NCBI GenBank assembly: GCA_002399785.1
Contig: DHEH01000004.1
Coordinates: 19,107-83,106 of the forward strand
DNA: 64,000 nt
Source: Bacillales bacterium UBA4855
GTDB lineage: Bacteria; Bacillota_I; Bacilli_A; RFN20; CAG-826
Direction: 5' to 3'
Shown here piece after piece: positions 16,140 through 34,166 of the stretch. Under the pieces are notes generated by a model, which was not told the DNA's origin, searched no databases, and was given only the letters and a program-made list of their open reading frames with translations. The position numbers and the translations under genes are program-made. Within the stretch, counting starts at the first letter, position 1. Each line of letters opens with the position of its first letter.

Positions 16140-17849
16140 ATGAAAATTAAAACATTACAGAGAAAAATTAAAAAACTCTATCCTTCAGTAGTTGTAGACA
16201 CAAAAGATGGTTGTGTACACTTAACAGGTACTCTTGATAATCGGGATGACATTGTTAATGCTGGTTATATGTCTGTTGATAAGAAGCGTTACCTTGGAGT
16301 TCTTAACGATATTAAGTTAAAAGGATTTGAAGAACCAAAAATACGTATTCCAAAAACTAACGATACTACCCTAGATGGTTTAAGAGTTGATTGTTTAGTA
16401 ATTGGAGGCGGAATTTCTGGCACTTCAATTCTAAGAGAATTAACAAGATATAACATATCTACTTTACTTGTTGAAAAAGAAAGCGATTTAGCGATGCAAG
16501 CAAGTGGTAGAAACGATGGAGAAGTACATCCGGGTGTCGACTTAAATAAAGGAAGTAAAAAACAATATTATGTCGTTCGTTCTAACCCTGAATTTGGAAA
16601 TATTTGTAAAGAATTGGATGTTGATTTTGTTAGACGTGGACAATATGCTTGTTTCGATAAACCAATTAATCCACTATTAAAATTATATGCTAAATTTAGA
16701 TCGATGAATGGCTGCCCAACGACAGTTGCTAATAAAAAAGAGATTGAAGAAAAAGAAACTCATTTTACAAAGAAGGTAAAATGCGCAATTTCTAATCCTC
16801 AATCAGGAGTTGTTTCTCCATATGAATTAACAATTGCTTTTGCTGAAAATGCTGTTAGTAACGGAGCAAAAGTTTCTTTAGATACCGCAATTTTAGATAT
16901 TGAAGTTAAAGGGGATAAAATTATTTCAGTAGAAACAAATAAAGGAACAATCTATCCAAAAGTAGTCATCAATGCAGCTGGTTGTTTTTCAGACAAAATT
17001 GCTGATATGGCTAACGATAGATTCTTTACTATTCATCCACGTAGTGGCACTGATTTCATTTTCGATAATAAAATCAGTGGTCAAATAAACCATATTTCAT
17101 CTTTTGTTGGCGCAAAAAAGAATAAAAAGAAACATTCTAAAGGTGGCGGAATAGTTAAAACTATAGATAATAATATTTTAATTGGTCCAAACGCCTACGA
17201 AACTCCTTATAGAGAAGATTATTCGGTGGTTGCCGGTTCTTTAGATGAAATAATTAAAAAGCAAGAAAGACTCTTACCATCATTAAACAAGAAAGATGTC
17301 ATCGCTTATTTTACTGGAACAAGAGCCGCAACATACGAAGAGGATTTTTATATCAATAAAGGTAGAAAAACCAAAAATATCGTTCATTGCGCTGGTATCC
17401 AATCACCTGGATTAACTACTGCTCCACTTGTGGCCAAAGATGTTAGTAAAATGGCTATCGAAGAATTGAGTGAAGTTATGAAAGTTGAAGAAAATAAGAG
17501 CTTTAATCCAATAAGAAAAAAGGATCCTATATTAAGAAAATTAAGTTCAGAAGAACGTAATGCTTTAATCAAAAAGAATCCAAGTTACGGAAGAATTGTT
17601 TGCCGTTGTGAACAAATCAGTGAAGGCGAAATAATTGATTGCCTTAATAGAAACATCAAGGTTCCAACAATTAACGGAATTAAACGTCGTGTTAGACCCG
17701 GTATGGGTCGTTGCCAAGGTGGTTTCTGTATGCCGCTTGTTGCTAAAATAATCTCAGATCACGAAAAATTTAATATATATGACGTTAAAGGAAAACAAAG
17801 TGATTATCCAGTTACCTTTAAATCAAATAAAAGAGAGAACCATGATTAA
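16140..17849 (+). CDS. FAD-dependent oxidoreductase of the GlpA / glycerol-3-phosphate-dehydrogenase-like family, with a C-terminal BFD-like [2Fe-2S] domain and an N-terminal BON-like extension
   Basis: 'DCLVIGGGISGTSILREL' dinucleotide fold. The C-terminal 'CRCEQISEGEI....RPGMGRCQGGFC' is a BFD-type motif. The first roughly 70 aa look BON-like. Confidence 0.8.
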   Translation: MKIKTLQRKIKKLYPSVVVDTKDGCVHLTGTLDNRDDIVNAGYMSVDKKRYLGVLNDIKLKGFEEPKIRIPKTNDTTLDGLRVDCLVIGGGISGTSILRELTRYNISTLLVEKESDLAMQASGRNDGEVHPGVDLNKGSKKQYYVVRSNPEFGNICKELDVDFVRRGQYACFDKPINPLLKLYAKFRSMNGCPTTVANKKEIEEKETHFTKKVKCAISNPQSGVVSPYELTIAFAENAVSNGAKVSLDTAILDIEVKGDKIISVETNKGTIYPKVVINAAGCFSDKIADMANDRFFTIHPRSGTDFIFDNKISGQINHISSFVGAKKNKKKHSKGGGIVKTIDNNILIGPNAYETPYREDYSVVAGSLDEIIKKQERLLPSLNKKDVIAYFTGTRAATYEEDFYINKGRKTKNIVHCAGIQSPGLTTAPLVAKDVSKMAIEELSEVMKVEENKSFNPIRKKDPILRKLSSEERNALIKKNPSYGRIVCRCEQISEGEIIDCLNRNIKVPTINGIKRRVRPGMGRCQGGFCMPLVAKIISDHEKFNIYDVKGKQSDYPVTFKSNKRENHD

Positions 17850-19086
17850 TTACGATACAGTCGTTATTGGCGGTGGCCCAGCTGGCCTAGCTAGCGCCAT
17901 TAGTGCGCACAATAATGGCGCAAAAGTCTTTTTAATTGAAAGAGAAGCACGACTTGGCGGAATTTTAAAACAATGTATTCATGATGGTTTTGGACTTCTT
18001 TATTTCAATGAAAAATTGTCAGGCCCAGAATATGCTCAAAATTTTATTGATAAATTTAATGAATTAAAAATTGAAAATACTACAAATAGTTTTGTTACAA
18101 AAATTACAAAAAAAGATGATCAATTTTTAATTGAATACGTTTCAGAAGACGGAGTAAAAGAAGTTTCTTCAAAGACCCTTATTTTATCTACTGGTTGCCG
18201 AGAAAGAACTTCAAAACAAGTTTTTATTAATGGAACAAGGCCATATGGCGTATTTTCTGCTAGTACCGCTCAATATTTTACGAATATTTTAGGTGTTTTA
18301 CCTTCAAAGAAATGCGTAATTTTAGGAAGTGGCGACATCGGATTAATTATGGCTCGAAGATTAACTCTTGAAGGAGTTAAAGTTCTTGGAGTTTATGAAA
18401 TTCTTCCTTCTCCATCAGGATTAACAAGAAATATTCATCAATGCTTATATGATTACAATATTCCACTTCATCTTTCACACACCATTACAAAATTATATGG
18501 AGAAAATAGATTAGAAGCTGTTGAAATTGCTCAAGTTGATGAAAAAATGCAACCAATTAAAGGAACAGAAGAAAAAATTGAGTGTGATGCATTGATTTTA
18601 TCAGTCGGTTTATTACCAGAAAATGAATTAGCTGAATCACTGGGAGTTCCACTTGATCCTAAAACTAGAGGCCCAATTGTCAACGAAAATTATATGACAA
18701 TGGTTGATGGGGTATTCACTTGTGGAAATGCAATGCAAGTTAATGATTTAGTTGATTACGTTTCGTTCACCGCTGAAAAAGCCGGACAAAGCGCTGCAAA
18801 ATATAAAATAAAAGAACAAACATATAATAATGTTGAAGCTAGTAAAGATTTCGGGTATGTCTTACCACAAAGATTGTCTAAAAATATTGAAAGTGAAAAT
18901 GTTGATTTCTATTTCCGTACCAAGAAAATTGAAGCTAAAGTTCAAGTTCAATTATTATGTAACGATAAAGTTATTTATTCTAAAACTTATCAACATCTTA
19001 AACCACCAGAGATGGAAAAAATCTCGATTAAATCAACTGATTTAATGATTAATGGAGATTTCAAACTTATTATGAAAAGAGGATAA
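17842..19086 (+). CDS. FAD/NAD(P)-binding pyridine-nucleotide-disulfide-type oxidoreductase (second subunit of the GlpA-like trio)
   Basis: I chose the start at 'MINYDTVVIGGGPAGLASA', with an AAAGAGAG SD-like run upstream and an 8-nt overlap with the previous stop. A second Rossmann motif is 'VILGSGDIGLIMA'. Confidence 0.8.
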   Translation: MINYDTVVIGGGPAGLASAISAHNNGAKVFLIEREARLGGILKQCIHDGFGLLYFNEKLSGPEYAQNFIDKFNELKIENTTNSFVTKITKKDDQFLIEYVSEDGVKEVSSKTLILSTGCRERTSKQVFINGTRPYGVFSASTAQYFTNILGVLPSKKCVILGSGDIGLIMARRLTLEGVKVLGVYEILPSPSGLTRNIHQCLYDYNIPLHLSHTITKLYGENRLEAVEIAQVDEKMQPIKGTEEKIECDALILSVGLLPENELAESLGVPLDPKTRGPIVNENYMTMVDGVFTCGNAMQVNDLVDYVSFTAEKAGQSAAKYKIKEQTYNNVEASKDFGYVLPQRLSKNIESENVDFYFRTKKIEAKVQVQLLCNDKVIYSKTYQHLKPPEMEKISIKSTDLMINGDFKLIMKRG

Positions 19087-19088
19087 TT

Positions 19089-19463
19089 ATGAAAGAATTA
19101 ACTTGTATAGTTTGCCCAAATAGTTGTTCTTTGAAAATTGAAAAAGTTAACGATGTATGGGTTGTAACCGAAAATAAATGTAAAAGAGGAGAGAAGTTTG
19201 CTATAAACGAGATGACGTGTCCGATGCGAACAATTTCTTCAACAGTTCGCACCACTTTCCCTGATGCACCAGTTGTTCCTGTAAGAGTTTCGGCAGAAAT
19301 TCCTAAAGATAAAATATTCGATGTTATGGAAGAAATTAATAAAGTAATTCTTGATAAACGAGTTAAAAGAGGATACAAAGTAATTAGTAGTTGTTTAGGA
19401 TTGAATGTGGACGTAATTGTCACAAGTAACATCCTAATTGAAAAAGGAGCGATTCATGAATAA
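19089..19463 (+). CDS. DUF1667-domain protein (third component commonly linked to the two flavoproteins)
   Basis: 124 aa. The N-terminal 'LTCIVCPNSCSL....CKRG' Cys cluster and the position after the two oxidoreductases match the DUF1667 pattern. Confidence 0.65.
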   Translation: MKELTCIVCPNSCSLKIEKVNDVWVVTENKCKRGEKFAINEMTCPMRTISSTVRTTFPDAPVVPVRVSAEIPKDKIFDVMEEINKVILDKRVKRGYKVISSCLGLNVDVIVTSNILIEKGAIHE

Positions 19464-20997
19464 TACCGAACCATTAGTATTCTCATTTGACTTTGGAACA
19501 CAAAGCGTTCGTGCTATGTTAGTTGATAAATGTGGCAAAATAGTTGCTTTGGTTAGAGAAAAATATCTTCCATCATACTACTCAAAAAAGATTGGTTACG
19601 CTGAACAATCATTTGATACCTATTATAAACACGCTTGCCTTGCTTCAAATAAATTAAAGGAGCAAAACAAAGAATTGTTTGAAAATATAATTTGTGTCAC
19701 CATTACTACAATTCGCGATACCTTCACTTGTACCGACGAAAAAGGTAATCCAATTAGAGATTTTATTCTTTGGTTAGATCAAAGAAGAGCTGAAGAACAA
19801 GAAAAGATGCCCTTATTTAAACGATTAATATTTAAAGCAGTTGGTATGGAATATGCTATAGAAAGACAAAGAGAAATATGTCGACCAGCATGGATTCGAC
19901 AAAACGAACCCGATTTATGGTCTAAAACTAAAAAATTTTGTAATATTAGCGCCATCTTAAATGCAAGATTAACTGGAAATTTTGTCGATTGTGACGCTTC
20001 TTGCATCGGTCGTGTTCCGTTTAATTATAAAAAACGTAACTGGATGAAAAGTAATGAACTTACTTATGAATTATTCGGTCTTGAACCTGACAAATTTATA
20101 AAAATTGTTAAACCAACTTCAAAAATTGGTGAAATTACAAGAAAAGCATCTCTTGAAACCGGTTTAAAAGAAGGATTACCAGTTATTGCTAGCGGTTCTG
20201 ATAAAGGATGCGAAACCATCGAATCTGGCGTTATGAATAATTATTCAGCAGCTCTTTCAATGGGCACTAGCGCCACAATTCAATTTGCTACTAAAAAATA
20301 TGTTGAACCAACAGCCTTCTTACCAGCTTATCCTTCTCCAAACCCAGATTTCTATAATCCTGAGTTACAAGTTATGCGCGCTGGTTGGATGTTCTATTGG
20401 TTTATTGAAAACTTCGGGTACGAAGATAAATTGATAGCTGCAAAAGAAGGTGTTTCTCCAGAACACATTCTCAATCGTCAACTCGATAAAGTACCACTTG
20501 GTTCTGGAGGGTTAATATTGCTCCCTTATTGGAATGCTCCACTAAAACAACCTGAAGCCAGAGGTTCAATTCTAGGTTTTATGCCAGATCACAATAAATA
20601 TTATATATATCGTGCAATTATGGAAGGTGTTGTCTTTACTCTCTATCAAGGATTTAAAACATTAGAGAAAAATTCAAAACATCACACTAAATTTCTTGTA
20701 ATCTCTGGAGGAAGTTCAGTCAGCGAAACAATTTGTCAAATTGTTGCTGATATCTTTAATCTTCCAGTCAAAAGATCAAAAGAAAGTGAAGCATGTGGAT
20801 TAGGTTCAGCAATGTGTGGATTCGTTGGAATGGGAATATATAAATCATTCAATGAAGCTGCTAGCAACATGGTAGGTTATGCTAAAACTTACGAACCAAT
20901 TAAAGAAAATCACCAAGAATACGAAAAAATATATCAAACTAAATTTAAAAAGATATATCCAAGCATTCGTGGGGTTTATAAAAATTACATAAAATAA
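19456..20997 (+). CDS. FGGY-family carbohydrate/polyol kinase
   Basis: I set the start at MNNTEP (AAAGGAG SD 7 nt upstream). 'FSFDFGTQSVRAMLVD' is the phosphate-1 motif and 'ISGGSSVSETICQIVADIFNLPV' is the C-terminal FGGY motif. Confidence 0.85.
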   Translation: MNNTEPLVFSFDFGTQSVRAMLVDKCGKIVALVREKYLPSYYSKKIGYAEQSFDTYYKHACLASNKLKEQNKELFENIICVTITTIRDTFTCTDEKGNPIRDFILWLDQRRAEEQEKMPLFKRLIFKAVGMEYAIERQREICRPAWIRQNEPDLWSKTKKFCNISAILNARLTGNFVDCDASCIGRVPFNYKKRNWMKSNELTYELFGLEPDKFIKIVKPTSKIGEITRKASLETGLKEGLPVIASGSDKGCETIESGVMNNYSAALSMGTSATIQFATKKYVEPTAFLPAYPSPNPDFYNPELQVMRAGWMFYWFIENFGYEDKLIAAKEGVSPEHILNRQLDKVPLGSGGLILLPYWNAPLKQPEARGSILGFMPDHNKYYIYRAIMEGVVFTLYQGFKTLEKNSKHHTKFLVISGGSSVSETICQIVADIFNLPVKRSKESEACGLGSAMCGFVGMGIYKSFNEAASNMVGYAKTYEPIKENHQEYEKIYQTKFKKIYPSIRGVYKNYIK

Positions 20998-21010
20998 AGG
21001 AAACAAAATT

Positions 21011-22744
21011 ATGACAAAAAAGAAAGAAGAATTTTTACCAAAATGGGTGACTGAAGAAGCTTCTCCAAGATCTTATAGATCAATCGGAAGATGGGGAGAT
21101 CCAAAATTCGTCAAATTCCCAAAACCTGCTTTATACAAATTTATGAAGCAAACATTTAATATGACTGACGAGGATTTCAAGCACTATCATAACGATATTG
21201 GTTTAGAAGATGTCGATATTAAAATTCCAACAAAAATGAGCGAAAAAGATATTAAAGCTTTTGCACAAATTGTTGGTGAAAAAAATATTTCACTCGATGT
21301 TTACGATAGATTATTCGTAATGTACGGAAAAACATTATATGACGTCATGAGAATTAGAGAGCATAAATTCGATAGTGTTCCTGATTTAGTTGTTTATCCA
21401 GAAGATACCGATCAAATCGAAAAAATAGTTGCTTATTGTACTGAAAATAAGATCCCACTTTATGTTTATGGTGGAGGATCAAGTGTCACTCGTGGTGTTG
21501 AACCAATTAAAGGCGGTGTCTCTCTTGATATGAGACGTAATTTCAATAAAGTCTTATCATTTAATGATATCGATCAAACCATCACTGTTCAAGCTGGTAT
21601 GAGTGGACCTGATTTAGAAAAACATCTTAATAATGCTATGCAAGAATTTAATGCATCTAGAGCTTATACTTGCGGTCACTTCCCACAATCATTTGAATAT
21701 TCTTCAGTTGGTGGTTGGGTTGTTACTCGTGGAGCTGGACAAAATAGTACATATTACGGTGTCATTGCTGATATCGTTTTATCACAAAAATACGCTACAC
21801 CAATCGGAACTATTAAAACTTCCCACTATCCTCGTGAATCAACCGGACCAAATCTTAATCAAATTATGATGGGATCAGAAGGAACATTTGGTGTTTTAAC
21901 TGAAGTAACTTTAAAAGTCTTTAGATATATGCCAAAAAATCGTAAAAGATATTCTTATATGTTTAAAAACTGGCAAGATGCTATGAATGCCGCTCGTGAA
22001 ATCATGCAAAGCGAAGATGGCTATCCATCAGCTTTTAGAGTATCTGACCCAGAAGAAACCGATATGATGCTTAAATTATATAATGTTGATGATTCACCAT
22101 TACGTTATTTCTTAGCTGGTTTTGAACCAATGAAAAGAAGTTTAATGTTAGGTTTTACTGAAGGAGACAAAGAATATTCCAAAAATGTTCGTAAAACAAT
22201 CGCTCGTGTCGCTAGAAAATATCATGCTCGTTCTTTAACTGGGCTTGTTTGCAAAAGCTGGGAACACGGAAGATTTAACGATCCATATTTAAGAGATACC
22301 CTTCTTGATTTTGGCATTGCTACCGATACTTTAGAGTGTACTGTCAATTGGTCAAATATGGCTCAAGTTCACGAAGAAGTTCGTAAAATTTGTCACGCTA
22401 GACCAAATACAGTCGTTACCACTCACTTGTCACATGCTTATCCACAAGGTGCTAACTTATATTTCATTTTTATCACTCATAGTGAAACTAGTGAAGATTT
22501 TAAAAAGTACCACACCACTATTCTTGATGCTATTCAAAAGAGTGGAGCTGCTATTAGTCACCACCATGGTGTCGGAAAAATGTTTGCTCCATGGCTTGAA
22601 GGCTACATGGGCAGAAAAGAATTCGGTATCTACCATGTTTTAAAAGATTATTTCGACAAAGATTATTTAATGAATCCAGGCGGAACAATTGGTTTAGATC
22701 TTGAAGAAAAAGACAAAAAATTCTTAAGAGACGACATTAAATAA
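21011..22744 (+). CDS. FAD-linked oxidase, alkyl-dihydroxyacetonephosphate-synthase (AGPS)-like
   Basis: PCMH-type FAD domain ('VVYPEDTDQIEKIV...YVYGGGSSV'). 'VGGWVVTRGAGQNSTYYG', 'STGPNLNQIMMGSEGTFGVLTEVTLKV', 'HLSHAYPQGANLYFIF' and an 'HHHGVGK' loop all resemble AGPS blocks. Confidence 0.75.
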   Translation: MTKKKEEFLPKWVTEEASPRSYRSIGRWGDPKFVKFPKPALYKFMKQTFNMTDEDFKHYHNDIGLEDVDIKIPTKMSEKDIKAFAQIVGEKNISLDVYDRLFVMYGKTLYDVMRIREHKFDSVPDLVVYPEDTDQIEKIVAYCTENKIPLYVYGGGSSVTRGVEPIKGGVSLDMRRNFNKVLSFNDIDQTITVQAGMSGPDLEKHLNNAMQEFNASRAYTCGHFPQSFEYSSVGGWVVTRGAGQNSTYYGVIADIVLSQKYATPIGTIKTSHYPRESTGPNLNQIMMGSEGTFGVLTEVTLKVFRYMPKNRKRYSYMFKNWQDAMNAAREIMQSEDGYPSAFRVSDPEETDMMLKLYNVDDSPLRYFLAGFEPMKRSLMLGFTEGDKEYSKNVRKTIARVARKYHARSLTGLVCKSWEHGRFNDPYLRDTLLDFGIATDTLECTVNWSNMAQVHEEVRKICHARPNTVVTTHLSHAYPQGANLYFIFITHSETSEDFKKYHTTILDAIQKSGAAISHHHGVGKMFAPWLEGYMGRKEFGIYHVLKDYFDKDYLMNPGGTIGLDLEEKDKKFLRDDIK

Positions 22745-22902: not shown

Positions 22903-24954
22903 TTATAATTTCATTGCAATATTCCAGGCATTCCAAACAGCAGACATGATATTGCCAACTTTATTGCAATCACCGATGAGATGAACCTTCTTATCTTTAC
23001 TAAGTGGAGCTTCACTATAGCCAACGCACATAATGACATCGCTACATTTTAAAGTGACATCTTTGCCATCTTTAGTAGTAATAATTGCGCTACCATCTTT
23101 AATTTCTTTAATTTTTGATTCAAGATAAACAGGAGTTTTATTGTAAGCAAAATAATCACGTAAATAACTTGAATTTGCTAAACACACTCCGTGAGCAGCA
23201 ATTAAATCATCTTTCATCTCAACAATAACTGGTTTTTTACCTTTTAAGCAAAGGTCATAAGCAATTTCACATCCAGTTAGAGATCCGCCAATAATAACGA
23301 CGTTATCGCCAACTTCTTTAGTGTGATTAAGGAAATCAACAGCTGACATCGCTAATTCGTAACCAGGAACTCTAATGACTCTTGCCTTGGCTCCGGTAGC
23401 AACGATGATTTCATCTTCTTTTAAGGATGATAAATCTTTAATTTCTGAATTAAATTTAACAGGAATATTCAAATCTTTAACTTGTTTACGGTACCAAGCA
23501 ATTAAGGCTTGGTCTTTCTCTTTAAATGAAAAGGAAGAAGCTGGAATAAAGACTCCACCTAAAACTGAACTCTTCTCATAAATTGTTGGTTTATGACCAC
23601 GTAAAGCTAAAACTCGAGCAGCTTCCATACCAGCAATTCCACCACCAATAATAGCGACAGTTTTGCTCTTTTTGGCTTTTTCAATATGATATTTCTTACT
23701 GTTCATCGAGGAAGGATTGACGGCACAGTGGCACATTCCTCTAGTTTCAGAAAGTGTTTGATCATTTGGTACGCCTTTATAATGGCAAAGATTAAAGCAT
23801 CCACTATGGCAACAAATACAAGGTCTAATGTCATCTTCGCTTTCATTAATCAATTTATGGACCCAATCAGGATCAGCTAAGAATTGACGACCAACACCCA
23901 TAGCATCTATTTTATTTTCTTTAATTTTTTCTGCACCAAAATCTGGTTCATTTCTTCCACCAACTACAACTGGAATTGATACGACTTTTTTAACTTCTTC
24001 AGCTTCCATATAGTTGCAGTTAAGAGGCATGTACATTGGTGGATGATTCCAATACCAAGCATCGTAAGTTCCGTTATCGCAGTTAAGCATATCGTAACCA
24101 GCATCTTGAAGATATTTTGCGGCTTTGAGTCCTTCTTCTAAATCTCTTCCGGCTTCAACATATTTTTCGCCTGGAAGGGCTCCTTCACGGTATCCTTTAG
24201 TTTTACTAACTACTGAATAACGAAGAGAAACTGGATAATCTTTACCACAAGCAGCTTTAATTGCATGAACAATTTCAACTGGAAATCTATAACGATTTTC
24301 AAATGATCCGCCATATTCATCTGTACGATGATTTGTATATTTCATAGTAAATTGATCGATTAAATAGCCTTCATGAACAGCATGAACTTCAATTCCGTCA
24401 ACACCAGCTTCTTTACAAAGTTTGGCAGTTTTTGCGAAAGCCTCGACTAATTTGTTAATTCTTTTAATTGTAATTTCTTTACTAGGAATTTTATCGCTCC
24501 AACGATTTGGCTCAGCACTAGGAGCTGCAGTTAAATCATCGACATTAAGAATTGGTTTAGCTAAATAACGAAGAAGAGGATTGCTTCCAATGGCTTCAAT
24601 TGGTTGACTAACAGCAAAAGCACGACCAAAACCAGCAGTAAGTTGAATAAATAACTTAGCACCAGTTTTATGAATTTCATCCATAAATTTCTTAAGTTGT
24701 TTAAATTTACCTTTTCCTTGATAAAGCCATTTTGGGCCTACCATATCATGAACTGGAGCAATTCCTGGAAGAATCAATCCACAATCGTTTTGAGCAATTT
24801 CTAACAAAAGCTTTGCTGCTTCTTTATCAAAATGATTTGGCTCACTAAATCCAAAAATACATGTTCCGCCCATAGGTAACATAACAATACGATTTTTAAT
24901 TTCTACATTTCCTATTTTCCAAGGAGTGAACAATGGTTCATACTTTTTTTCCAT
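22903..24954 (-). CDS. FMN / [4Fe-4S] / FAD enoate-reductase-family oxidoreductase (2,4-dienoyl-CoA reductase / BaiCD / FldZ architecture)
   Basis: 683 aa with an OYE-like N-terminal TIM barrel, the Cys cluster 'CICCHSGCFNLCHYKG....CHCAVNP', then 'VAIIGGGIAGMEAA' and 'VVIIGGSLTGCEIA' dinucleotide folds. Confidence 0.85.
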   Translation of the reverse strand: MEKKYEPLFTPWKIGNVEIKNRIVMLPMGGTCIFGFSEPNHFDKEAAKLLLEIAQNDCGLILPGIAPVHDMVGPKWLYQGKGKFKQLKKFMDEIHKTGAKLFIQLTAGFGRAFAVSQPIEAIGSNPLLRYLAKPILNVDDLTAAPSAEPNRWSDKIPSKEITIKRINKLVEAFAKTAKLCKEAGVDGIEVHAVHEGYLIDQFTMKYTNHRTDEYGGSFENRYRFPVEIVHAIKAACGKDYPVSLRYSVVSKTKGYREGALPGEKYVEAGRDLEEGLKAAKYLQDAGYDMLNCDNGTYDAWYWNHPPMYMPLNCNYMEAEEVKKVVSIPVVVGGRNEPDFGAEKIKENKIDAMGVGRQFLADPDWVHKLINESEDDIRPCICCHSGCFNLCHYKGVPNDQTLSETRGMCHCAVNPSSMNSKKYHIEKAKKSKTVAIIGGGIAGMEAARVLALRGHKPTIYEKSSVLGGVFIPASSFSFKEKDQALIAWYRKQVKDLNIPVKFNSEIKDLSSLKEDEIIVATGAKARVIRVPGYELAMSAVDFLNHTKEVGDNVVIIGGSLTGCEIAYDLCLKGKKPVIVEMKDDLIAAHGVCLANSSYLRDYFAYNKTPVYLESKIKEIKDGSAIITTKDGKDVTLKCSDVIMCVGYSEAPLSKDKKVHLIGDCNKVGNIMSAVWNAWNIAMKL

Positions 24955-24957
24955 ATT

Positions 24958-25701
24958 TTATTTTTCCTTTCGTGCGCTATTTGCCTTGCCTACCATCTTT
25001 TTATGAAATTCTTTCATTTCATCGACTTCGGCACATACCGGTTTCCAAGCACATTTTTTACAATTCATTACAGAATCTTTTAACATATGATTATAAGCTT
25101 CACTTCTTTCGTGAGACTTATTAGCAATAAATTCAAGTTCATTATAAGATACATTAACGGAAGTAACAAATAATATTTTTACTCCTAATACATGAGGATC
25201 TTTATGAAATTCATGAATGAATTCATTACCAATTTGAGCAAAATTAAGCTTATTTTTAATTGCATCTTTACTAACTCGAACTTGTTCTCGTAATGTAAGC
25301 GCACTTGCTCTAATCATAAAACCTTTGATAGCAATATTATATTTACTGATTTCAATATTTTTTAATATTTCATAGAAACTATCAGGTCCGTTTTTTTCAA
25401 CATCATCGACAAGTAAGAAAACAATTCGTGCATAAGAGCAATCAGTTTTAATTTCATTTAAATCTGGTCCAATTAAGATAACTTCATCCTTATCTATAAT
25501 AGTTTTATCTTGGGTAACAGCTAAGAAAGATAAACTATCGTAACCACCAGCACCTAATTCATAAGCTGTTTCTTTTTGTAAAATGAGTTCATTATGTTCC
25601 CCTAAAGGAGCAAGATTTTTCTCATCGTAAACAAATGACTTTTTAGAAAAAGGTTTAAGATAAGTTAAGGTTTCGTTAATTAAATCATCAAATGCTTTCA
25701 C
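24958..25701 (-). CDS. Stand-alone protein resembling the middle domain of acetyl-CoA synthase (AcsB/CdhC), with a short C-terminal Cys motif
   Basis: GTG start with an AAAGAGGA SD. 'ETAYELG....VILIGPDLNEI', 'VRVSKDAIKN' and the C-terminal 'CKKCAWKPVC' parallel, from my memory of Moorella AcsB, 'PAFELV...IEVIGPDIDQI', 'LRVSKDAV' and 'CVLCQSFAPNHVC'. Confidence 0.45.
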   Translation of the reverse strand: MKAFDDLINETLTYLKPFSKKSFVYDEKNLAPLGEHNELILQKETAYELGAGGYDSLSFLAVTQDKTIIDKDEVILIGPDLNEIKTDCSYARIVFLLVDDVEKNGPDSFYEILKNIEISKYNIAIKGFMIRASALTLREQVRVSKDAIKNKLNFAQIGNEFIHEFHKDPHVLGVKILFVTSVNVSYNELEFIANKSHERSEAYNHMLKDSVMNCKKCAWKPVCAEVDEMKEFHKKMVGKANSARKEK

Positions 25702-25868
25702 TAAATATCCTCTTTTTGATGTTTTTTATCATGATGCTTTATTAACATATTATATACTTTTTCAACTAACTTCATATCGCCGTTGGTTATATAAATGATG
25801 AAAATAACAACAAAGAATAAAACAATTAAACTACCCAATACTATTAAAAGTATCCAATACCATGCCAT
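25701..25868 (-). CDS. Unlisted 55-aa single-TM peptide gene inside the operon
   Basis: My own translation gives MAWYWILLIVLGSLIVLFFVVIFIIYITNGDMKLVEKVYNMLIKHHDKKHQKEDI*. The ATG lies 2 nt after the activase stop, and its TAG overlaps the GTG of the next gene (TAGTG). It is below the ORF-track length cutoff. Confidence 0.4.
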   Translation of the reverse strand: MAWYWILLIVLGSLIVLFFVVIFIIYITNGDMKLVEKVYNMLIKHHDKKHQKEDI

Positions 25869-25870
25869 AA

Positions 25871-26662
25871 TTATTCCATTCCTTTTTGTCTAGCAAACTC
25901 AGCGGCACCTAAAGCTCCCATAAGTTGTGGGTCAGTAGATAATTCGATAACTTTAATATGCAAAACGTTTTCAATGGCTTGTTTTAAGCCTTTATTTTTA
26001 GCACATCCACCAGTTAAAGCAATTTGATCAGTTGCGCCGGCTTTTTTAGCCATAATAAAGCAACGTTTTGCAACTGCTTGTTCGATACCAGCAGCAATTT
26101 CTTCACGTGGTTTTCCTTCACCAACTAAAGTTATAACTTCTGATTCAGCAAAAACTGTACATTGAGCAGTAATTGCAATGACATTTTTAGCTGTTAAAGA
26201 AAGATCAGAGAATTGGTCGAGAGTTAACTTAAAGGCTCTAGCCATAGTTTCAAAGAAACGTCCAGTTCCAGCGGCACATTTATCGTTCATAGCAAACTCT
26301 TTAACAGTTCCATCTTCATCAATAGCAATACCTTTAACGTCTTGTCCACCAATATCAATGATGGCTTTTACTTCAGGATTTGTAACGTGAACGCCCATAG
26401 CGTGACAAGAAATTTCTGAAATGTTTTCTTGAGCTTGAGGAACTTTATTTCTTCCGTAGCCTGTACCGATAAGATAAGTGAAATCATTGAGTGATTTCAT
26501 TTCAGGAATTTGTTTAATTACTTCTTCTAAGCCTTCTTTAGCACTAATTTCGCTATTGATGTCGCTAGGAATTGTTGCATGAGCAATCATCTTTCCTTCT
26601 TCGTCTAAAATTACACATTTTGTATAGGTTGAACCTACATCACATCCACCAAAATATTTCAT
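25871..26662 (-). CDS. ATP-dependent activase of the 2-hydroxyacyl-CoA dehydratase / benzoyl-CoA reductase family (HgdC/BcrAD_BadFG type)
   Basis: 'GCDVGSTYTKCVILD', 'IIDIGGQDVKGI', 'MNDKCAAGTGRFFE', 'AQCTVFAESEV' and 'LTGGCAKNKGL' are the ASKHA ATPase motifs plus the two cluster-bridging Cys. Confidence 0.9.
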   Translation of the reverse strand: MKYFGGCDVGSTYTKCVILDEEGKMIAHATIPSDINSEISAKEGLEEVIKQIPEMKSLNDFTYLIGTGYGRNKVPQAQENISEISCHAMGVHVTNPEVKAIIDIGGQDVKGIAIDEDGTVKEFAMNDKCAAGTGRFFETMARAFKLTLDQFSDLSLTAKNVIAITAQCTVFAESEVITLVGEGKPREEIAAGIEQAVAKRCFIMAKKAGATDQIALTGGCAKNKGLKQAIENVLHIKVIELSTDPQLMGALGAAEFARQKGME

Positions 26663-26677
26663 ATTTTTACTCCTTTA

Positions 26678-28249
26678 TTACCAAGTCAAAGCATCTTCAT
26701 AATCCAATAAACTTGGATCGAGAGGCTCAGCATGGAAGATATTTTGCATATATTGATTAAACGATGCTCTCATCGCTTTTCTTGAAACGGTACGTGGATC
26801 CATTAAGTCATGTGAAACCCAGACTAAATGAATGCCTCTTTTTCTTGCTTGTTCTTCGTATAGACCATGAAGTCCAGCAACGTTTTTACAAGAAACGTGA
26901 TCAAACATAATGACAATATCAGCTTTAAATTTCTCAGCCATTTTCCAACATTCATCAAGCGAATTGACGTATCCACCATTGGTGTGAGATCTCATCATCA
27001 TTCTTTCATAACTCTTAGCCATATCAATCATGGCTTGTTCTTTATCACCAATATGGAAGAAATGGTGTGAAAGCATACATTCCATATCAACAACACACTT
27101 AACGCCCCAACAATGTTGAGTCCAATAAGTGAAATTTGTATAGTAGTGAGCAGGACATGCCCAAACTATTGATCTATACTTTGGTTTATTAGCATCATTC
27201 TTTTTGTCTTGTAAATAGCCTTTTTGCATCATTTTATCGACTTTTATATCAGTTTTAATGAAGAATGGGTCTAAACAAGCAACTTCTTGATATTCATACT
27301 CACGTTGTAAAGCAAGAGCTGCTCCACAAACTTGTGGGTATGGAGTGCAATTTACATCCCATTTATTAATCATCATTTTGGTTGAGGTGTTATACATCTC
27401 GGCACCTTTCCAAAAAGCATCCCAATCCCATTTTGCATGCATCTCTTTTTCAATAAAAGCAATACATTTTTTAAGATTCTTAACCGCAAAATCTTGAACC
27501 TGTTCTTCATTAAATCTTTGTGGAGGAATAATTTGGAATGTTTCAACTCCATATTTTTCCATATATCGACCTAAGAAAGATGTTTGACCAATCGAACCAT
27601 CACAAGGCATAGAGCTAGTAACATAAGCTCTACCTACAATTGGATAATCATCAGTAACGGCACAACCGACTTCGGCTTCAGGTAATGGACAAACATCGCT
27701 TGCCATTCCAAAATGTTCAATAGCATCAATATAAAATACATTAGCATTTTGATCAACTTCACCTGGCTCACCAATTGTAAACATAGCAATATCGATCCAC
27801 TTAACTTTTGGGAAACCTGCCATAATGATTGATGGAGTCATTTCATCAAACATTAAGGTATTAGCTCTTAATTTGGCTGCGTGTTTACTTTTTGGTCTTA
27901 AATGTAAATCACGAACAATTATATCTCTAATCTTAACGACCGAATAATACATCAAAGAATAGAATTGTTCGTGTGTGTAACGAAGTTCTTTTCCTCTTAA
28001 TCCAAGTGTATGACGATCGACCATGTTAGCGGCTGTAAGGTAAGATGCCATCCAACGATATCTTAATAATGCTTTAACCATTAAAATTGGATGGACCGCA
28101 AGTTTTACAACCATCAACCCATATAATTTCAACCAGCGGAAATAATCGTACATGGTGTCACCAAATCCCTTCCGCTCACGATAAGTGAAAGCTCTTTTGT
28201 CACCTCTATAAAATCTTCCGAGGCCTTTTTTGTTTTTATTTGGTTCCAT
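26678..28249 (-). CDS. 2-hydroxyacyl-CoA-dehydratase / benzoyl-CoA-reductase-family subunit (large, divergent N-terminus)
   Basis: 523 aa of the HGD-D-type family, with conserved Cys contexts ('ASDVCPLPEAEVGC', 'SSMPCDGS') and a C-terminal 'IVIMFDHVSCKNVAG'. It shares a TAATG overlap with the upstream subunit. Confidence 0.7.
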   Translation of the reverse strand: MEPNKNKKGLGRFYRGDKRAFTYRERKGFGDTMYDYFRWLKLYGLMVVKLAVHPILMVKALLRYRWMASYLTAANMVDRHTLGLRGKELRYTHEQFYSLMYYSVVKIRDIIVRDLHLRPKSKHAAKLRANTLMFDEMTPSIIMAGFPKVKWIDIAMFTIGEPGEVDQNANVFYIDAIEHFGMASDVCPLPEAEVGCAVTDDYPIVGRAYVTSSMPCDGSIGQTSFLGRYMEKYGVETFQIIPPQRFNEEQVQDFAVKNLKKCIAFIEKEMHAKWDWDAFWKGAEMYNTSTKMMINKWDVNCTPYPQVCGAALALQREYEYQEVACLDPFFIKTDIKVDKMMQKGYLQDKKNDANKPKYRSIVWACPAHYYTNFTYWTQHCWGVKCVVDMECMLSHHFFHIGDKEQAMIDMAKSYERMMMRSHTNGGYVNSLDECWKMAEKFKADIVIMFDHVSCKNVAGLHGLYEEQARKRGIHLVWVSHDLMDPRTVSRKAMRASFNQYMQNIFHAEPLDPSLLDYEDALTW

Positions 28250-29466
28250 TATTTTGCCTCCTCATTTTTCTTAGCTCTTTGAGCTTTAATTTTCTTAATT
28301 TCAACATTTTCGACAAAAGCTTGAACTCTTGTACGAAGTTGTCCGCTATTTCCAGATCGATATGGTCTATCGATTGAAAGAGTAGGAATATGGTACTCAT
28401 CACGTAAAACGTGACTTGCTAATGTTCTTTCATATGACCAATAAGTACAGAATTTCATTTGTTCATATATTATTCCGTCTGCATTATATTCTTTTACAAG
28501 ATCGGCAGCATGTTGGAAACGATATTTAACTTTATGAGGAATACATTGTCTTGGGCATTCAGTTGTTTGAACGTAATTTCTAACAATTTGAGTTAAGATG
28601 TCTTCATCCTTATTTAATATAATCTCTTGTCTTCCAGGAACACTTCCATAGCAATAACGATCACAAACTACTCTAATTCCGTTTTCTTCAAATAATTTGA
28701 TTAAATCTGGATCATCAATTTCAGAACCAACAACCACCGCTTTAATTCTAAAATCTTTCTTCTTGTCAGGAACTCTAGTTTTAAGTTCTTCACAAGTTTC
28801 TTTAAGTTTTTCAATCATTAAATCTTTTGGACAAACATAACTTGCCAAAACAAAAATAGCAAATTCATAACCAGTAATGGTTGGATTATCAAGGTGACGA
28901 TATTGATCCATTTCTTTAAATAATCGGCAAATTTCATTATGTCTATTTACTGCATCAATAAGAGATGCATCGGAAATATCAATGTCGTATTTTTCATGTA
29001 ATTGAGTCAACACTTTTCTTGACACTTGCTCTTTTAAATGTGCAACTGCATCTTCATCATCAGTACAAGGAACATCAAGATTGGTATAGAAAAAATTCTT
29101 TTTTTCAGGAGAATTTACTTGAAGTAATTCCATATTTTCCATCGCTCTATTCATCGCTTCACATGCGTCAACACCAGCAATGGCGTCAAGGAAATGATAT
29201 CCACCTTCAAGACCTCTTTCTAATAGAGCTCGTGAATATTCACAGCTTCCACTCGACATATAGTAACTTGCCATTTCCATTGAACCAGTTCGTGGAGCTC
29301 TTAAACGAATCGAAAAACAACGGCCAAGATTTAAAAGTACCTCAGGCATATGGTAACAAGTGTAACCAAGAGCTAATCTTCCCTCTTTTTGCGCTTCTCT
29401 AACAAGTTCGTTATTAGCATCATCTAATAATTTTTCGAAATAAAATAAATGTTTTAAGTCCTTCAC
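28249..29466 (-). CDS. 2-hydroxyacyl-CoA-dehydratase / benzoyl-CoA-reductase-family subunit
   Basis: 405 aa. It uses a GTG start with a strong AAGGAGGA SD and a GTGA overlap with the cooC-like stop. 'LALGYTCYHMPEVL', 'SGSCEYSRALLE', 'DACEAM' and 'QMKFCTYWSYE' are typical of HgdB/BcrB-like subunits. Confidence 0.8.
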   Translation of the reverse strand: MKDLKHLFYFEKLLDDANNELVREAQKEGRLALGYTCYHMPEVLLNLGRCFSIRLRAPRTGSMEMASYYMSSGSCEYSRALLERGLEGGYHFLDAIAGVDACEAMNRAMENMELLQVNSPEKKNFFYTNLDVPCTDDEDAVAHLKEQVSRKVLTQLHEKYDIDISDASLIDAVNRHNEICRLFKEMDQYRHLDNPTITGYEFAIFVLASYVCPKDLMIEKLKETCEELKTRVPDKKKDFRIKAVVVGSEIDDPDLIKLFEENGIRVVCDRYCYGSVPGRQEIILNKDEDILTQIVRNYVQTTECPRQCIPHKVKYRFQHAADLVKEYNADGIIYEQMKFCTYWSYERTLASHVLRDEYHIPTLSIDRPYRSGNSGQLRTRVQAFVENVEIKKIKAQRAKKNEEAK

Positions 29467-30242
29467 TTGCTAATTCCTCCTTTTATATCTAAGTTTTTTA
29501 AAGCTTCGTCAACACCTTTAATTAATAAAGAATCATCATCTAAATCAAGGACGCTTTTGCCCATTACATCGGTTAAAGCTAGTTCTTTATCATCAGGAAT
29601 TTTTGCAAGAATTGGCAATTTACCTAGATTTAAATATTCATCAATTCGGGAATCATTATAACGATTAACAATGACACCAATTTTTGAATACATTGTTAAT
29701 TCATCAGCAACTTGCTTAATTACTTTAATAACATTAGTTCCTTTTCGACTTGGATCGGTAACTAATATTAAATGAGTAACTTTTTCCATAACACGACGAT
29801 TAATTTGTTCAATTCCAGCTTCTCCATCAATTACCACAAAATCAAATTCTTCGCTAACTGCCGAAATAACTTGTTTTAAATAGGAATTGATACTGCAATA
29901 ACATCCAGCAGCTTCAGGACGACCGACAGCTAAAAAAGCAAAACCTTGAGTCTCAATCATGGCATTCAAAAGTTGAAAACGAGCTTCTCCTAAAAGCTCA
30001 ATTGCTTTCTTTTTTGTTTTGTCTTCTTCCCCTGCTTCCGTAATTGATTTACGAATATCATCTATAGTTTGGCCAACATTAGTAATACCTAATGCAGTAG
30101 CTAAACCAATTGCAGGATCCGCATCTATTGCTAAGATCCTTTTGTTAGGAAACATCTTAACAAGTTCTCTAATAATCGCTGCGGAAATAGAGGTTTTACC
30201 AACCCCACCTTTTCCTGCTAAGGCTATAACTGTACTTTTCAT
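29463..30242 (-). CDS. CooC/AcsF-type MinD-family P-loop ATPase (Ni-insertion chaperone family)
   Basis: Deviant Walker A 'AGKGGVGKTS', 'ILAIDADP', the CXC metal motif 'AAGCYCSINSYL' (Cys114/Cys116) and 'VVIDGEAGIEQINRR'. It is co-linear with my recollection of Carboxydothermus CooC1 ('GGSQCYCRENSFL', 'MDMGAGIEHLTRG'). Confidence 0.75.
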   Translation of the reverse strand: MKSTVIALAGKGGVGKTSISAAIIRELVKMFPNKRILAIDADPAIGLATALGITNVGQTIDDIRKSITEAGEEDKTKKKAIELLGEARFQLLNAMIETQGFAFLAVGRPEAAGCYCSINSYLKQVISAVSEEFDFVVIDGEAGIEQINRRVMEKVTHLILVTDPSRKGTNVIKVIKQVADELTMYSKIGVIVNRYNDSRIDEYLNLGKLPILAKIPDDKELALTDVMGKSVLDLDDDSLLIKGVDEALKNLDIKGGISK

Positions 30243-30572: not shown

Positions 30573-33500
30573 CTATAAACCAAATTTCTTAATTCTGTCC
30601 CATCTTTCCTTGGCGCACTTCTCGTTCTTTGCGAATAATTCTTCGTAATGAGCAGGATTGACCTTTGGAAGTTGAGCATATCTTGTTTCCTTCATAATGA
30701 AATCTCTGATCTTTGTAAAATCAGGTTCTTTGCAATCAATTGAAAGTCCTGGTTTGCCTTCAGCAACAAGACGTGGATCGTATCTAAATGTAGTAAAGTA
30801 GCCACATTCAACAGCGTTCTTTTCAGTTTCAATTGAGTTGACCATACCACCTTTAATACCTTGGTTAATACATGGAGAATAACAGATAATTAAGGATGGA
30901 CCATTGAATGATTCAGCTTCTTTGAAAGCCTTAATTGCAGCTGCTGGGTTAGCACCTAAAGCAACTTGAGCAACGTATACTGAACCATAAGCCATAGCCA
31001 TTAAAGCAAGATTCTTCTTGGCTTGTCTCTTTCCACTTGCAGTGAATTGAGCGATACTTCCGGTTTGACTTGATTTAGAAGATTGACCACCAGTATTGGA
31101 GTAAACTTCAGTATCAAGACACATAACATTGATATCATCTTCACTAGCTAAGACGTGATCAAGTCCGCCGTAACCAATATCGTAAGCCCAGCCATCTCCA
31201 CCAATAATCCAAACTGATTTATCAAGTAAATCGTTCTTGTAATCGAGAACTTTCTTGATTTCTCTATTTTTGCTGGCTTCAACACCTTTAAGTAATTCTG
31301 GAATAATCTTTCTAGCTTCATCTTTGTTTTTGATGTTTGCAAGATAATTTCTAATTAAATCTTTAAGTCCTGGTTCAAGTCTCTTAGTTAAGCATTCATT
31401 TAAGATAGAGGAAATTGCAGCTAATTTATAATCAGTAGCAAGTCTCATACCATAACCATATTCAGCGTTATCTTCGAATAAGGAGTTAGCCCATGCGATA
31501 CCATTACCTTTTTTGTCGTTAACAAATGGAGTTTCTGGGGTTGATCCACAATAAATTGAAGAACAACCAGTAGCATTAGCAACTAGCATATCTTTTCCGA
31601 ATAATTGTGATAATAATCTGTAGTAAGGGGTTTCTCCACAGCCAGCGCAAGCACCACTAATTTCCATGTAAGGCATTAAGAATCCAACACCTTTTACAGT
31701 TGTAAGTGGGAATTTATCAGTCTTATATTCAGTATGTTTGAATAAATATTCAGCATACTTTTCTTTATCAAATTGTGATTTAGCTTCAACAAGTTCAAGA
31801 GCAGTCTTACCGCTACCAGTTCTTAAAGCATTCTTGTTAGCCATACATTCTTTGACACAAAGTCCACAACCAACACAGTTCTTTGGTGAGATAGAAATAA
31901 TGAATTTAAGTCCATTAACAGTTGGTCCCATAGCTGGTTTTACCATATCGGCAAGTCCGGCTGGTCCCTTCTTAATTTCTTCATCAGTTAATAAGAATGG
32001 TCTAATTGTAGCGTGTGGACAAACAAATGAACATTGGTTACATTGAATACAGTTTTCTTGATGCCAAACTGGAACTCTATCAGCAACACTACGTTGTTCT
32101 TGATAAGTGACATCTTCTCTCATTGATCCATCAAGAAGTCCATCTTTTGTGAAGGCACTTGTTGGTAAATCATATCCATCAAGAGAATTGATAACATCGA
32201 CATAATTATCGATATATTCATCACCAGTTGAATTTCTAACTCTTAATGGAGGAAGATTAATCCACTCTGGATCAACTTTAACTTCTCTAAGACCTTCAGT
32301 TCCTTTATCGATAGCGACATAGTTAAGTTTAACAACTTCGTCACCTTTCTTGGAATATGTCTTTAAAGCAAGTTTTTTCATCCACTTATTGGCCTCTTCA
32401 TATGGCATAATTTGTGGATTTAAAGAGAAGAATGCTGATTGAAGAATAGTATTTGTATGTCTACCCATACCGATTTCAAGAGCAATCTTGTTAGCATCTA
32501 TAACATAGAATTTTATGTGTTTTTTAGCTAATTGATATTTGACTCTATTAGGAAGAACTTTGGCTAACATCTCATCACTCATATCTGTGTTGAGTAAGAA
32601 AGTTCCGTTCTCTTTAAGATTCTTTAACATATCGAATCTCATAACATAAGTATCAAGTGAACAACTTAAGAAATCAGCGTGATCAACATAATATGTAGAA
32701 TGAATTGGTTCTTTACCGAATCTAAGGTGAGATCTTGTGACACCACCTGATTTTTTGGAATCGTAAGCAAAATAAGCTTGTGCATATTGATGAGTTGCAT
32801 CACCAATAATCTTAATTGATGACTTATTAGCACCGACAGTTCCATCGCTTCCTAATCCGTAGAATAAGCAGCTAGTGTAACTATGTTTAATTTCATAATT
32901 TTCATCAACAGGAATACTTAAATGTGTGACATCATCGTTGATTCCGACTGTGAAATCGTGATGTTCGTTACCACTAAGCATCCAATCAAAGACGGATTTA
33001 ATATGTTTTGGTTGAGTATCTTTACTGCTTAAACCATATCTTCCACCAATGACATTAATCTTCTTTTTGCCCATAAAGTTAAGAGCACTGCAAACATCTT
33101 CATATAATCCTTCACCAACCGAACCAGATTCTTTAGTTCTATCTAAAACAACTAATTCTTTGCAAGTTCTTGGTAAAGCTTTAACTAAATATTCAGCACT
33201 AAACGGTCTATAAAGGTGGACTCTAATCATACCAACCTTTTCACCTTTAGCCATTAAATCAGTAACAACTTCATAAGCGGTTTCATTGACTGAACCCATA
33301 GCAACAATAACTTTAGTAGCATCTTTAGCACCATAATAAACAAATGGAGCATAATCTCTACCAGTCATTTTACTTACTTTCTTTAAATATTTGACAGCAA
33401 CAGGAAGAACATTGTTGAAGTGTTCATTTTGTGCTTCTCTACCTTGGAAGTAAATATCATCATTTTCAGCACCACCACGAGTAACAGCGTGTCCGTGTGG

Positions 33501-34136: not shown

Positions 34137-34166
34137 TGTTTTTATCTCCTTTAACAATACATAATA

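Follow-up and report, generated by a model that had tools for sequence, protein, structure and literature searches.

Some of the most reducing reactions in biology are catalyzed by class I benzoyl-CoA reductases (BCR), 2-hydroxyacyl-CoA dehydratases (HAD) and the related double-cubane enzymes, which are thought to need only iron-sulfur (Fe-S) clusters and an activase. We know of no characterized BCR, HAD or double-cubane cluster protein (DCCP) system that includes a domain of acetyl-CoA synthase (ACS) as a subunit, an ATPase of the CooC type or a small membrane peptide. ACS itself (AcsB in Moorella, CdhC in archaea) is a nickel enzyme, and according to Gregg et al. (2016), as cited in PMC10134865, AcsF, an ATPase of the CooC family, loads nickel into it. 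Here we analyzed a stretch of 64,000 nucleotides from Bacillales bacterium UBA4855 (assembly GCA_002399785.1, contig DHEH01000004.1, positions 19,107 to 83,106 of the forward strand; hereafter the window), in which homologs from both systems are encoded side by side. The open reading frame (ORF) 24958-25701 on the minus strand encodes a 247-residue protein with an ACS domain, which we call ACSmid for short. An earlier note, made from the letters of this DNA alone, had described it as a stand-alone protein resembling only the middle domain of ACS and had read it as an adaptor for a HAD-type enzyme, binding CoA or bridging clusters. We found the resemblance to be real, and ACSmid to be the last gene of a six-gene core cassette of fixed order that also encodes a CooC/AcsF-type ATPase and the subunits of a BzdNO-like enzyme.

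Homology of ACSmid to acetyl-CoA synthase

Two features of the window concern ACSmid itself:

24958..25701, minus strand: ACSmid, stand-alone homolog of the ACS middle (A2) domain with the A2-A3 linker helix and the first A-cluster loop (ORF, Pfam, family profile, AlphaFold2 model, Foldseek)
25003..25062, minus strand: putative metal or Fe-S site, Cys214-x2-Cys217-x5-Cys223-x9-His233 (conservation, alignment to ACS)

The ACSmid gene starts with a GTG codon preceded by the Shine-Dalgarno sequence AGAGGA, and its start shares one nucleotide with the stop codon of an upstream 55-residue ORF. The start call is sound because the homologs begin at the same Met. A single-sequence phmmer search of the PDB with ACSmid returned no match, and a family profile was required. 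The profile built from 29 diverse homologs matched residues 334-510 of Moorella ACS with an E-value of 5.7e-8, and it also matched the ACS structures from C. hydrogenoformans, C. autoethanogenum and Methanosarcina. In Pfam, the CdhC family (PF03598) covers residues 38-169 of ACSmid (E 5.6e-5) with 23.5 bits, just under the gathering cutoff of 24 bits. Most homologs carry a precomputed PF03598 match, and a copy from another genome (locus L045) reaches 27.3 bits; we therefore accept the family as a member of the CdhC domain family, with the window copy as a marginal case. Against the NCBIfam models of the alpha/beta subunits of carbon monoxide dehydrogenase (CODH)/ACS, ACSmid covers positions 308-479 of 705.

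The AlphaFold model, computed from the 29-sequence alignment, has a pLDDT of 87 and a pTM of 0.84. When it was compared with the PDB by Foldseek, all 21 matches with an E-value of 0.001 or better were ACS/CdhC structures (4.7e-10 to 1.9e-5), and the next match had an E-value of 0.24. The common fold extends over approximately 175-225 residues, with TM-scores normalized to the query of 0.44-0.57 for these 21 matches, at a sequence identity of 16-21%. The resemblance between ACSmid and ACS is thus far beyond chance, and the view of ACSmid as a stand-alone counterpart of the ACS middle domain is borne out by the profile, Pfam/NCBIfam and Foldseek searches. ACSmid lacks the A1 domain altogether and everything in A3 beyond the first loop. 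A SPASM-domain match to residues 194-224 (E 0.054) was too weak and was taken as noise.

The four peptide blocks quoted in the earlier note are all present in ACSmid, and the profile alignment to Moorella ACS places "VILIGPDLNEI" on "IEVIGPDIDQI" and "REQVRVSK" on "NWLRVSK", so that both proteins share the G-P-D and R-V-S-K motifs. One of the pairings proposed in the earlier note was wrong: "ETAYELG" aligns with "DMYVEMGG" of ACS and not with "PAFELV". The most conserved stretch of ACSmid, G-F-M-x-R-x-S...R-E-Q-V-R-V-S-K, corresponds to residues 414-432 of the ACS A2 domain, which hold the acetyl-CoA contacts Gly421 and Trp427 (Moorella numbering; contacts from bioRxiv 10.1101/2024.08.05.606187). 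In C. autoethanogenum ACS, acetyl-CoA is held on A2 by Trp405, which stacks on it, together with Arg383 and His386 (bioRxiv 10.1101/2024.08.05.606187). In one pairwise profile alignment to Moorella ACS, Trp405 maps to Gln140 of ACSmid, and Arg383 and His386 map to non-conserved positions. Neither the CoA-stacking Trp nor the thioester-side Arg/His is therefore conserved, and of the CoA-contact region only the R-V-S-K motif is kept, while R92, R131, R142 and K145 are conserved basic residues of the family. Judging from these alignments, ACSmid seems to have retained a functional A2 surface with a changed chemistry.

The C-terminal part of ACSmid contains three Cys residues, whose codons lie exactly where they had been reported (Cys214 at 25060-62, Cys217 at 25051-53 and Cys223 at 25033-35); the only other Cys is C88. 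The profile alignment superimposes Cys214 and Cys217 on Cys506 and Cys509 of Moorella ACS, as the shared Cys-x2-Cys of the cubane. The ligands of the Moorella A-cluster [4Fe-4S] are reported to be Cys506, 509, 518 and 528 (Doukov 2002, Darnault 2003). A fourth residue, overlooked in the earlier note, belongs to the motif of ACSmid: His233 lies 10 residues past Cys223, just as the fourth cubane ligand of ACS, Cys528, lies 10 residues past the third, Cys518. His233 thus takes the place of the fourth Cys, leaving three Cys and one His where ACS has four Cys. Cys509 is the bridging Cys of ACS, and Cys217 is its equivalent in ACSmid. Cys214, Cys217, Cys223 and His233 show no variation across the 29 diverse homologs, in a set of 79 they are conserved to at least 95%, and the family motif sits within a conserved "C-D-E-V-E-G-M-K-E-L-H" helix. 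Neither of the two outcomes named in the earlier note as refuting the resemblance was observed: the profile and structure matches to ACS are significant, and the three Cys do not vary. The C-terminus is modeled as helices with moderate confidence. As had been predicted, the protein stops shortly after the first three cluster Cys, with its last residue (247) 24 residues past Cys223, and without the nickel-binding Cys-Gly-Cys. ACSmid therefore departs from a functional ACS in four features: the fourth cubane Cys, the Cys-Gly-Cys site together with the A3 domain, the CoA contacts, and the genomic context of CODH and corrinoid iron-sulfur protein (CFeSP) described below.

The ACSmid family is large. 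A word-indexed search found 145 relatives, the listed full-length ones with approximately 230-250 residues. Searching exhaustively with a profile gave 840 clusters (50% identity) with E-values of 0.001 or better, 579 of them at 1e-10 or better. Among the best 150 of the 840 clusters, the full-length entries have approximately 235-250 residues and none is a fusion. At least 556 species among the GTDB representative genomes have a relative of ACSmid. Most of the carriers are Oscillospiraceae, Ruminococcaceae and Lachnospiraceae of the gut and rumen; others are Clostridium algidicarnis, Owariibacterium komagatae, and metagenome-assembled genomes (MAGs) of Anaeroplasmataceae and Erysipelotrichaceae.

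A conserved cassette with a BzdNO-like core

The ACSmid gene is the sixth of seven densely packed genes on the minus strand, with gaps or overlaps of at most 15 nucleotides. Upstream of it, in this order, lie the genes for the ATPase, a BzdN-like and a BzdO-like subunit, an activase and a 55-residue membrane peptide; downstream lies the gene for a flavoenzyme of the old yellow enzyme (OYE) type:

29463..30242, minus strand: CooC/AcsF-type MinD-family ATPase, 259 residues, with a G-C-Y-C motif (PDB match to CooC1, Cys conservation)
28249..29466, minus strand: BzdN/HadC/DCCP-like subunit, 405 residues (PDB matches, Cys conservation, Pfam HGD-D)
26678..28249, minus strand: BzdO/HadB-like subunit, 523 residues (Pfam HGD-D, E 4.7e-31; profile against the PDB)
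25871..26662, minus strand: BcrAD/BadFG-type ATP-dependent activase, HgdC/HadI-like (Pfam PF01869, E 2.9e-58; TIGR00241, acyl-CoA dehydratase activase, 224 bits)
25701..25868, minus strand: single-pass membrane peptide, 55 residues, with a hydrophobic N-terminus (ORF and recurrence)
22903..24954, minus strand: OYE-type Fe-S flavoenzyme, 683 residues, 2,4-dienoyl-CoA reductase/BaiCD-like (Pfam Oxidored_FMN and Pyr_redox_2)

The first six genes, from the ATPase to ACSmid, constitute the core cassette. The gene order is the same in Pseudobutyrivibrio ruminis (L001), in a Bacillota MAG (L002), at L004 and at the closely related locus L086. We fetched 85 loci with an ACSmid gene, 46 of which were informative, with at least 5.1 kb of upstream sequence, and 39 of which had short flanks. 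The full cassette is present at 38 of the 46 informative loci; five have only the ATPase and ACSmid, and three have ACSmid alone. At the orphan locus L043, ACSmid is surrounded by unrelated genes. At 35 of the 39 short-flank loci (L018, L021, L025-L040 and others), the contig begins inside the activase gene, which is still visible upstream of ACSmid. These breaks are likely assembly failures at a highly conserved (approximately 75-85% amino acid identity) and probably multi-copy gene; because of them, metagenome bins would systematically contain the cassette in pieces. The cassette is also found in cultured strains, namely Pseudobutyrivibrio ruminis, Clostridium algidicarnis DSM 15099 and Owariibacterium komagatae.

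Among PDB structures, the ATPase matches the nickel chaperone CooC1 best (3kje, E 4.1e-13), and in the alignment its CYC falls on the CYC metal site of CooC1. The ATPase has the two motifs by which CooC/AcsF proteins are recognized, a deviant Walker A (GKGGVGKT) and a metal-binding CXC, whose C114 and C116 reach a conservation of at least 95% among 44 sequences. Its homologs carry only generic names such as "AAA family ATPase" and "ArsA-related P-loop ATPase". Like ACS, ACSmid is thus encoded with a CooC/AcsF-type ATPase, and like the AcsF/CooC systems with their clients ACS and CODH, the cassette pairs a CXC MinD-type ATPase with a homolog of a known client; here, the pair sometimes stands as a two-gene unit and the client has no nickel-binding Cys-Gly-Cys.

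The 405-residue subunit matches BzdN (8s02_B, E 8.2e-26), HadC (1.5e-20) and DCCP (3.8e-10) in the PDB. Its conserved Cys residues C37, C75, C102, C272, C304 and C340 align with the six ligands of the [8Fe-9S] double cubane of BzdN, C36, C73, C100, C263, C293 and C327 (PMC11971306). Three additional Cys, C50, C180 and C212, are at least 95% conserved and missing from BzdN; they could constitute an additional metal site. For the 523-residue subunit, phmmer found no match in the PDB and a profile was required, which matched DCCP (6eno, 7.6e-10), MbdO (9g87, 1.7e-5) and BzdO (8s02_A, 1e-4). This subunit has invariant C187, C216 and C454, like the open-site [4Fe-4S] of BzdO/HadB. It begins with a conserved, Cys-free N-terminal extension (approximately 90-165 residues, within residues 1-165; the HGD-D match begins at residue 170), approximately 90 residues of which are extra compared with BzdO. 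R24, E25, G28, W39, Y64-R65-W66, R85 and G86 are invariant in the extension, which might be a docking surface.

The six double-cubane and three active-site Cys of the BzdNO(PQ) class I benzoyl-CoA reductases, of HadBC with HadI, and of DCCP are thus kept in the cassette, and an HgdC/HadI-type activase is encoded in the same operon. Among the conserved Cys of the activase are C129 and C168, which we take to be the cluster-bridging Cys pair of HgdC-type activases. Two subunits with the HGD-D fold and a BcrAD-type ATPase place the cassette in the BCR/HAD/DCCP family, and from the features of all three proteins we conclude that its catalytic core is an ATP-dependent radical enzyme of the BzdNO/HadBC type. 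The NCBIfam equivalog scores of the core are far under the cutoffs (double_cubane 133 bits vs. 350, BzdN 95 vs. 454, HadC 93 vs. 700). The substrate is probably a CoA ester.

A peptide of 51-55 residues with an N-terminal membrane helix and a Y-x-x-N-x-D-x-K motif is encoded directly upstream of ACSmid at nearly all cassette loci, and its stop codon usually overlaps the ACSmid start. In the window, where its ORF is unannotated, the peptide has the conserved tail Y-x-x-N-x-D-x-K...Y...D-x-K. It occurs in two sequence subtypes, "AWYWI...YITNADMKL" and "VLFVVYFWNLDQKLL", and belongs to no Pfam family. The gene for the OYE-type enzyme starts 3 nucleotides past the ACSmid stop in the window, and homologs flank the cassette at approximately 20 loci, L086 among them, which makes it a frequent and not an obligatory neighbor. 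Its NCBIfam BaiCD/BilR-like match is under the cutoffs. Genes for CoA-transferase, thiolase and 3-hydroxyacyl-CoA dehydrogenase lie near the cassette at some loci.

Genes for CODH, corrinoid proteins (CFeSP) or methyltransferases, the usual company of an ACS, were found neither among the larger ORFs of the window that we scanned with Pfam nor in the gene tables of L001, L002, L004 and L086, the remaining loci having been checked for the cassette proteins only. P. ruminis is not known to carry CODH/ACS.

Apart from the OYE-type enzyme, no neighbor in the window recurs at related loci. On the plus strand, a gene group at 16140-22744 converges on the cassette and is not conserved beside it elsewhere. 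It encodes a GlpA-like FAD dehydrogenase with a BFD [2Fe-2S] domain, a pyridine-nucleotide-disulfide oxidoreductase, an FGGY kinase and an FAD-linked oxidase (FAD_binding_4 and FAD-oxidase_C) resembling alkyl-DHAP synthase or glycolate oxidase. Because of PF06050 (PMC13159169), the alkyl-DHAP-synthase-like oxidase in this group and the membrane peptide, we considered whether the cassette is linked to anaerobic plasmalogen synthesis; the idea was dropped because the other neighbors in the window do not recur at related loci. On the minus strand, like the cassette, and directly upstream of it after a gap of 330 nucleotides, 30573-34157 encodes a protein of 1194 residues, which we read by eye as a pyruvate:ferredoxin oxidoreductase. 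Low-potential electrons could come from this protein, but its position is not conserved at other loci. Farther away, 39678-41487 on the minus strand encodes a PfkB kinase and an indigoidine-synthase-A-like protein, which we take to be a pseudouridine kinase and a pseudouridine-5'-phosphate glycosidase; the pair is ordinary and has no relation to ACSmid.

Association of ACSmid with the CooC-like ATPase

ACSmid and the ATPase also occur together outside the cassette. At L045 (9146-10735), L047, L066, L071 and L077, the ATPase gene is directly followed by ACSmid, with no HAD genes within 10 kb and with neither an activase gene nor the membrane peptide within reach; L048 and L084 are further such pairs with short flanks. 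In the pair-only loci all motifs are intact, and in one of them the stop and start codons overlap. The four residues of the Cys3His motif are retained in the pair-only loci as well as in the orphan loci. The neighbors of the pair at L045 are genes for an [FeFe]-hydrogenase-like protein, IMPDH, a pseudouridine synthase and a LarA-like protein (nickel-pincer racemase N-terminal domain); a search at this locus for an alternative partner of ACSmid found no recurring gene.

A mirror-tree comparison of 34 complete cassettes gave a partial correlation of 0.58 between the distances of ACSmid and those of the ATPase, with the other three proteins regressed out, and of 0.18 (HGDa) and -0.02 (HGDb) between ACSmid and the core subunits; we treat this as only a hint because the sequence pairs are non-independent and share an operon history, and the values carry no significance test. 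ACSmid is the fastest-evolving protein of the operon, with a mean distance of 0.54 compared with 0.18-0.45 for the others. Taken with the pair-only loci, the tightest genetic link of ACSmid appears to be that with the CooC-like ATPase.

Other nickel proteins occur sporadically. A CooT gene lies beside the cassette at L004 (5210-5401, 32.4 bits, above the cutoff), L019 and L056, and a HypA gene lies near it at L001 (13789-14133) and L020.

Possible roles and implications of the ACSmid cassette

We tentatively favor the reading that ACSmid is a domesticated fragment of ACS, consisting of A2, the linker helix and the first A-cluster loop, which is no longer an ACS and binds metal as a client or partner of the CooC-like ATPase in the service of the BzdNO-like enzyme. 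As AcsF loads nickel into ACS, co-option of a maturase-client pair is the simplest evolutionary explanation: ACSmid and the ATPase would have been recruited jointly from an AcsF:ACS pair, and the client trimmed to A2 and the first cluster loop. The ATPase would load a metal or a cluster onto the C-terminal Cys3His site, either a [4Fe-4S] held by three Cys and the His, to which Cys217 might bridge another metal, or a mononuclear Ni or Zn. Kept at the membrane by the co-translated 55-residue peptide, the loaded ACSmid would become a third subunit by docking on the BzdNO-like core, and would supply an extra redox or metal center there or pass the metal on. The core would reduce or dehydrate an acyl-CoA, and the neighboring OYE-type enzyme may often reduce the product further. 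ACSmid would most likely be a small third subunit with a center ligated by the Cys3His motif.

Several points weigh against this reading. We infer every functional step from homology and synteny: that ACSmid binds a metal and which one, that the ATPase loads it, that ACSmid docks on the core and that it is tethered to the membrane. The CXC sites of CooC-type ATPases can also bind Zn or possibly Fe-S, and Cys-x2-Cys...Cys...His is also a common zinc-site pattern. With the Cys-Gly-Cys nickel ligands of ACS missing, a true A-cluster cannot form. The 40 C-terminal residues, which carry the motif, are modeled with a pLDDT of only 63-71. A consistent nickel-chaperone neighborhood was looked for and not found, CooT or HypA genes being present at approximately 5 of the 85 loci; at three loci ACSmid stands alone, and the mirror-tree signal is subject to the non-independence noted above. 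Finally, BzdNO and DCCP mature in E. coli without such a helper (PMC11971306).

The most serious rival, which we nevertheless regard as unlikely, makes ACSmid a pure maturation factor, a transient scaffold or adaptor that together with the ATPase assembles a cluster or inserts it into the core, for instance the [8Fe-9S] double cubane or one at the site of the three extra Cys of the BzdN-like subunit, without being part of the working enzyme. CooC-type ATPases are maturases, with CooC1 as the best PDB match here; the ATPase-ACSmid pairs exist apart from HAD genes, and the distances of ACSmid follow those of the ATPase and not those of the core subunits. The rapid evolution of ACSmid would also suit a scaffold, and C50, C180 and C212 could be its real target. 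Such a scaffold, however, has no obvious use for the large invariant A2 surface, the translational coupling to a membrane peptide would be unusual for a soluble chaperone, and the related double-cubane enzymes need no dedicated maturase (PMC11971306). A version of the adaptor proposed in the earlier note, one that would bind CoA or acyl-CoA and present the substrate to the HAD-type enzyme, with a Cys motif of structural importance only, is in our view improbable. The tie to a HAD-type enzyme holds as a genetic one, given the 38 informative loci with the full cassette, and most acetyl-CoA contacts of ACS do lie on A2 (bioRxiv 10.1101/2024.08.05.606187). The conserved R-V-S-K and basic residues, together with neighbors that point to CoA-ester metabolism (CoA-transferase, thiolase, 3-hydroxyacyl-CoA dehydrogenase, OYE-type reductase), fit as well. 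The CoA-binding half of the proposal is weak, since the adenine-stacking Trp and the thioester-side Arg/His are not conserved; moreover, BzdO/HadB-type subunits bind CoA themselves in a channel of their own, so that no adaptor is required (PMC11971306). The proposal was also incomplete, leaving out the co-encoded ATPase and the membrane peptide, and it gives no account of why a CooC-type ATPase is obligatory, why Cys3His is invariant or why there are pairs without HAD genes.

Somewhat less probable again is a structural subunit, in which the A2 fold and a C-terminal finger stabilized by Zn would do no more than attach the soluble enzyme to the membrane by way of the 55-residue peptide, or regulate it, with no part in redox chemistry or metal delivery. 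The peptide gene directly upstream, overlapping the start codon at nearly every cassette locus, the zinc-like spacing of the motif and the helices predicted for the C-terminus with moderate confidence agree with it; yet ACSmid and the ATPase keep all their motifs at the pair-only loci, which have no membrane peptide, and the ATPase would be left without a role. That ACSmid is a decaying remnant or a mis-called fragment of a real ACS gene is effectively refuted by conservation. The score of the window protein just under the Pfam cutoff could suggest as much, but the ORF is intact with its Shine-Dalgarno sequence, the 840 clusters include, among the best 150, full-length entries of uniform length without fusions, the motifs are invariant and the operon position is fixed, and the genes that accompany an ACS are missing from the scanned window ORFs and the four tabulated loci.

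The boldest reading is a long shot: the cassette would encode the first heterometal (nickel)-dependent member of the BCR/2-hydroxyacyl-CoA dehydratase family. The ATPase would build a reduced A-cluster-like Ni-Fe-S center on ACSmid, with the cubane on Cys214, Cys217, Cys223 and His233, and with Cys217 bridging to a further metal, for which C50, C180 and C212 of the BzdN-like subunit would provide the remaining coordination.

The databases currently name members of the ACSmid family "carbon monoxide dehydrogenase" or "CODH/ACS beta subunit". These names are misleading, and the label "carbon monoxide dehydrogenase" can give false signals of the Wood-Ljungdahl pathway or CO metabolism in gut metagenomes. 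Full-text literature searches found no description of the family or the cassette; an Acetobacterium isoprene-reductase paper (PMC10134865) and a Roseburia genomics paper (PMC7478625) proved unrelated to the cassette. The claim that this use of an ACS domain is new holds in part: as the PF03598/CODH label is already in the databases, the bare resemblance to ACS is not new, whereas the role and the context were undescribed. New is the recognition that a radical-enzyme operon has in ACSmid an accessory module that is large and fixed, that this module has an invariant Cys3His motif and is linked to a nickel-chaperone-type ATPase, and that the names in use for it mislead.

To a family of enzymes thought to manage with Fe-S clusters and an activase, the cassette adds two parts borrowed from the nickel enzyme ACS, a maturase of its type and a piece of ACS itself. 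The uncharacterized combination of a CooC-like ATPase, ACSmid and a radical enzyme suggests an unexpected extra metal site or maturation step in this enzyme family. If ACSmid and the ATPase bind or deliver metal, they would represent a new cofactor arrangement or maturation route among the BCR/HAD enzymes and, if true, a rare documented case of the reuse of an ACS domain outside carbon fixation. Should the Ni-Fe-S reading be true, Firmicutes of the gut and rumen would possess a new low-potential or organometallic catalytic site at the membrane.

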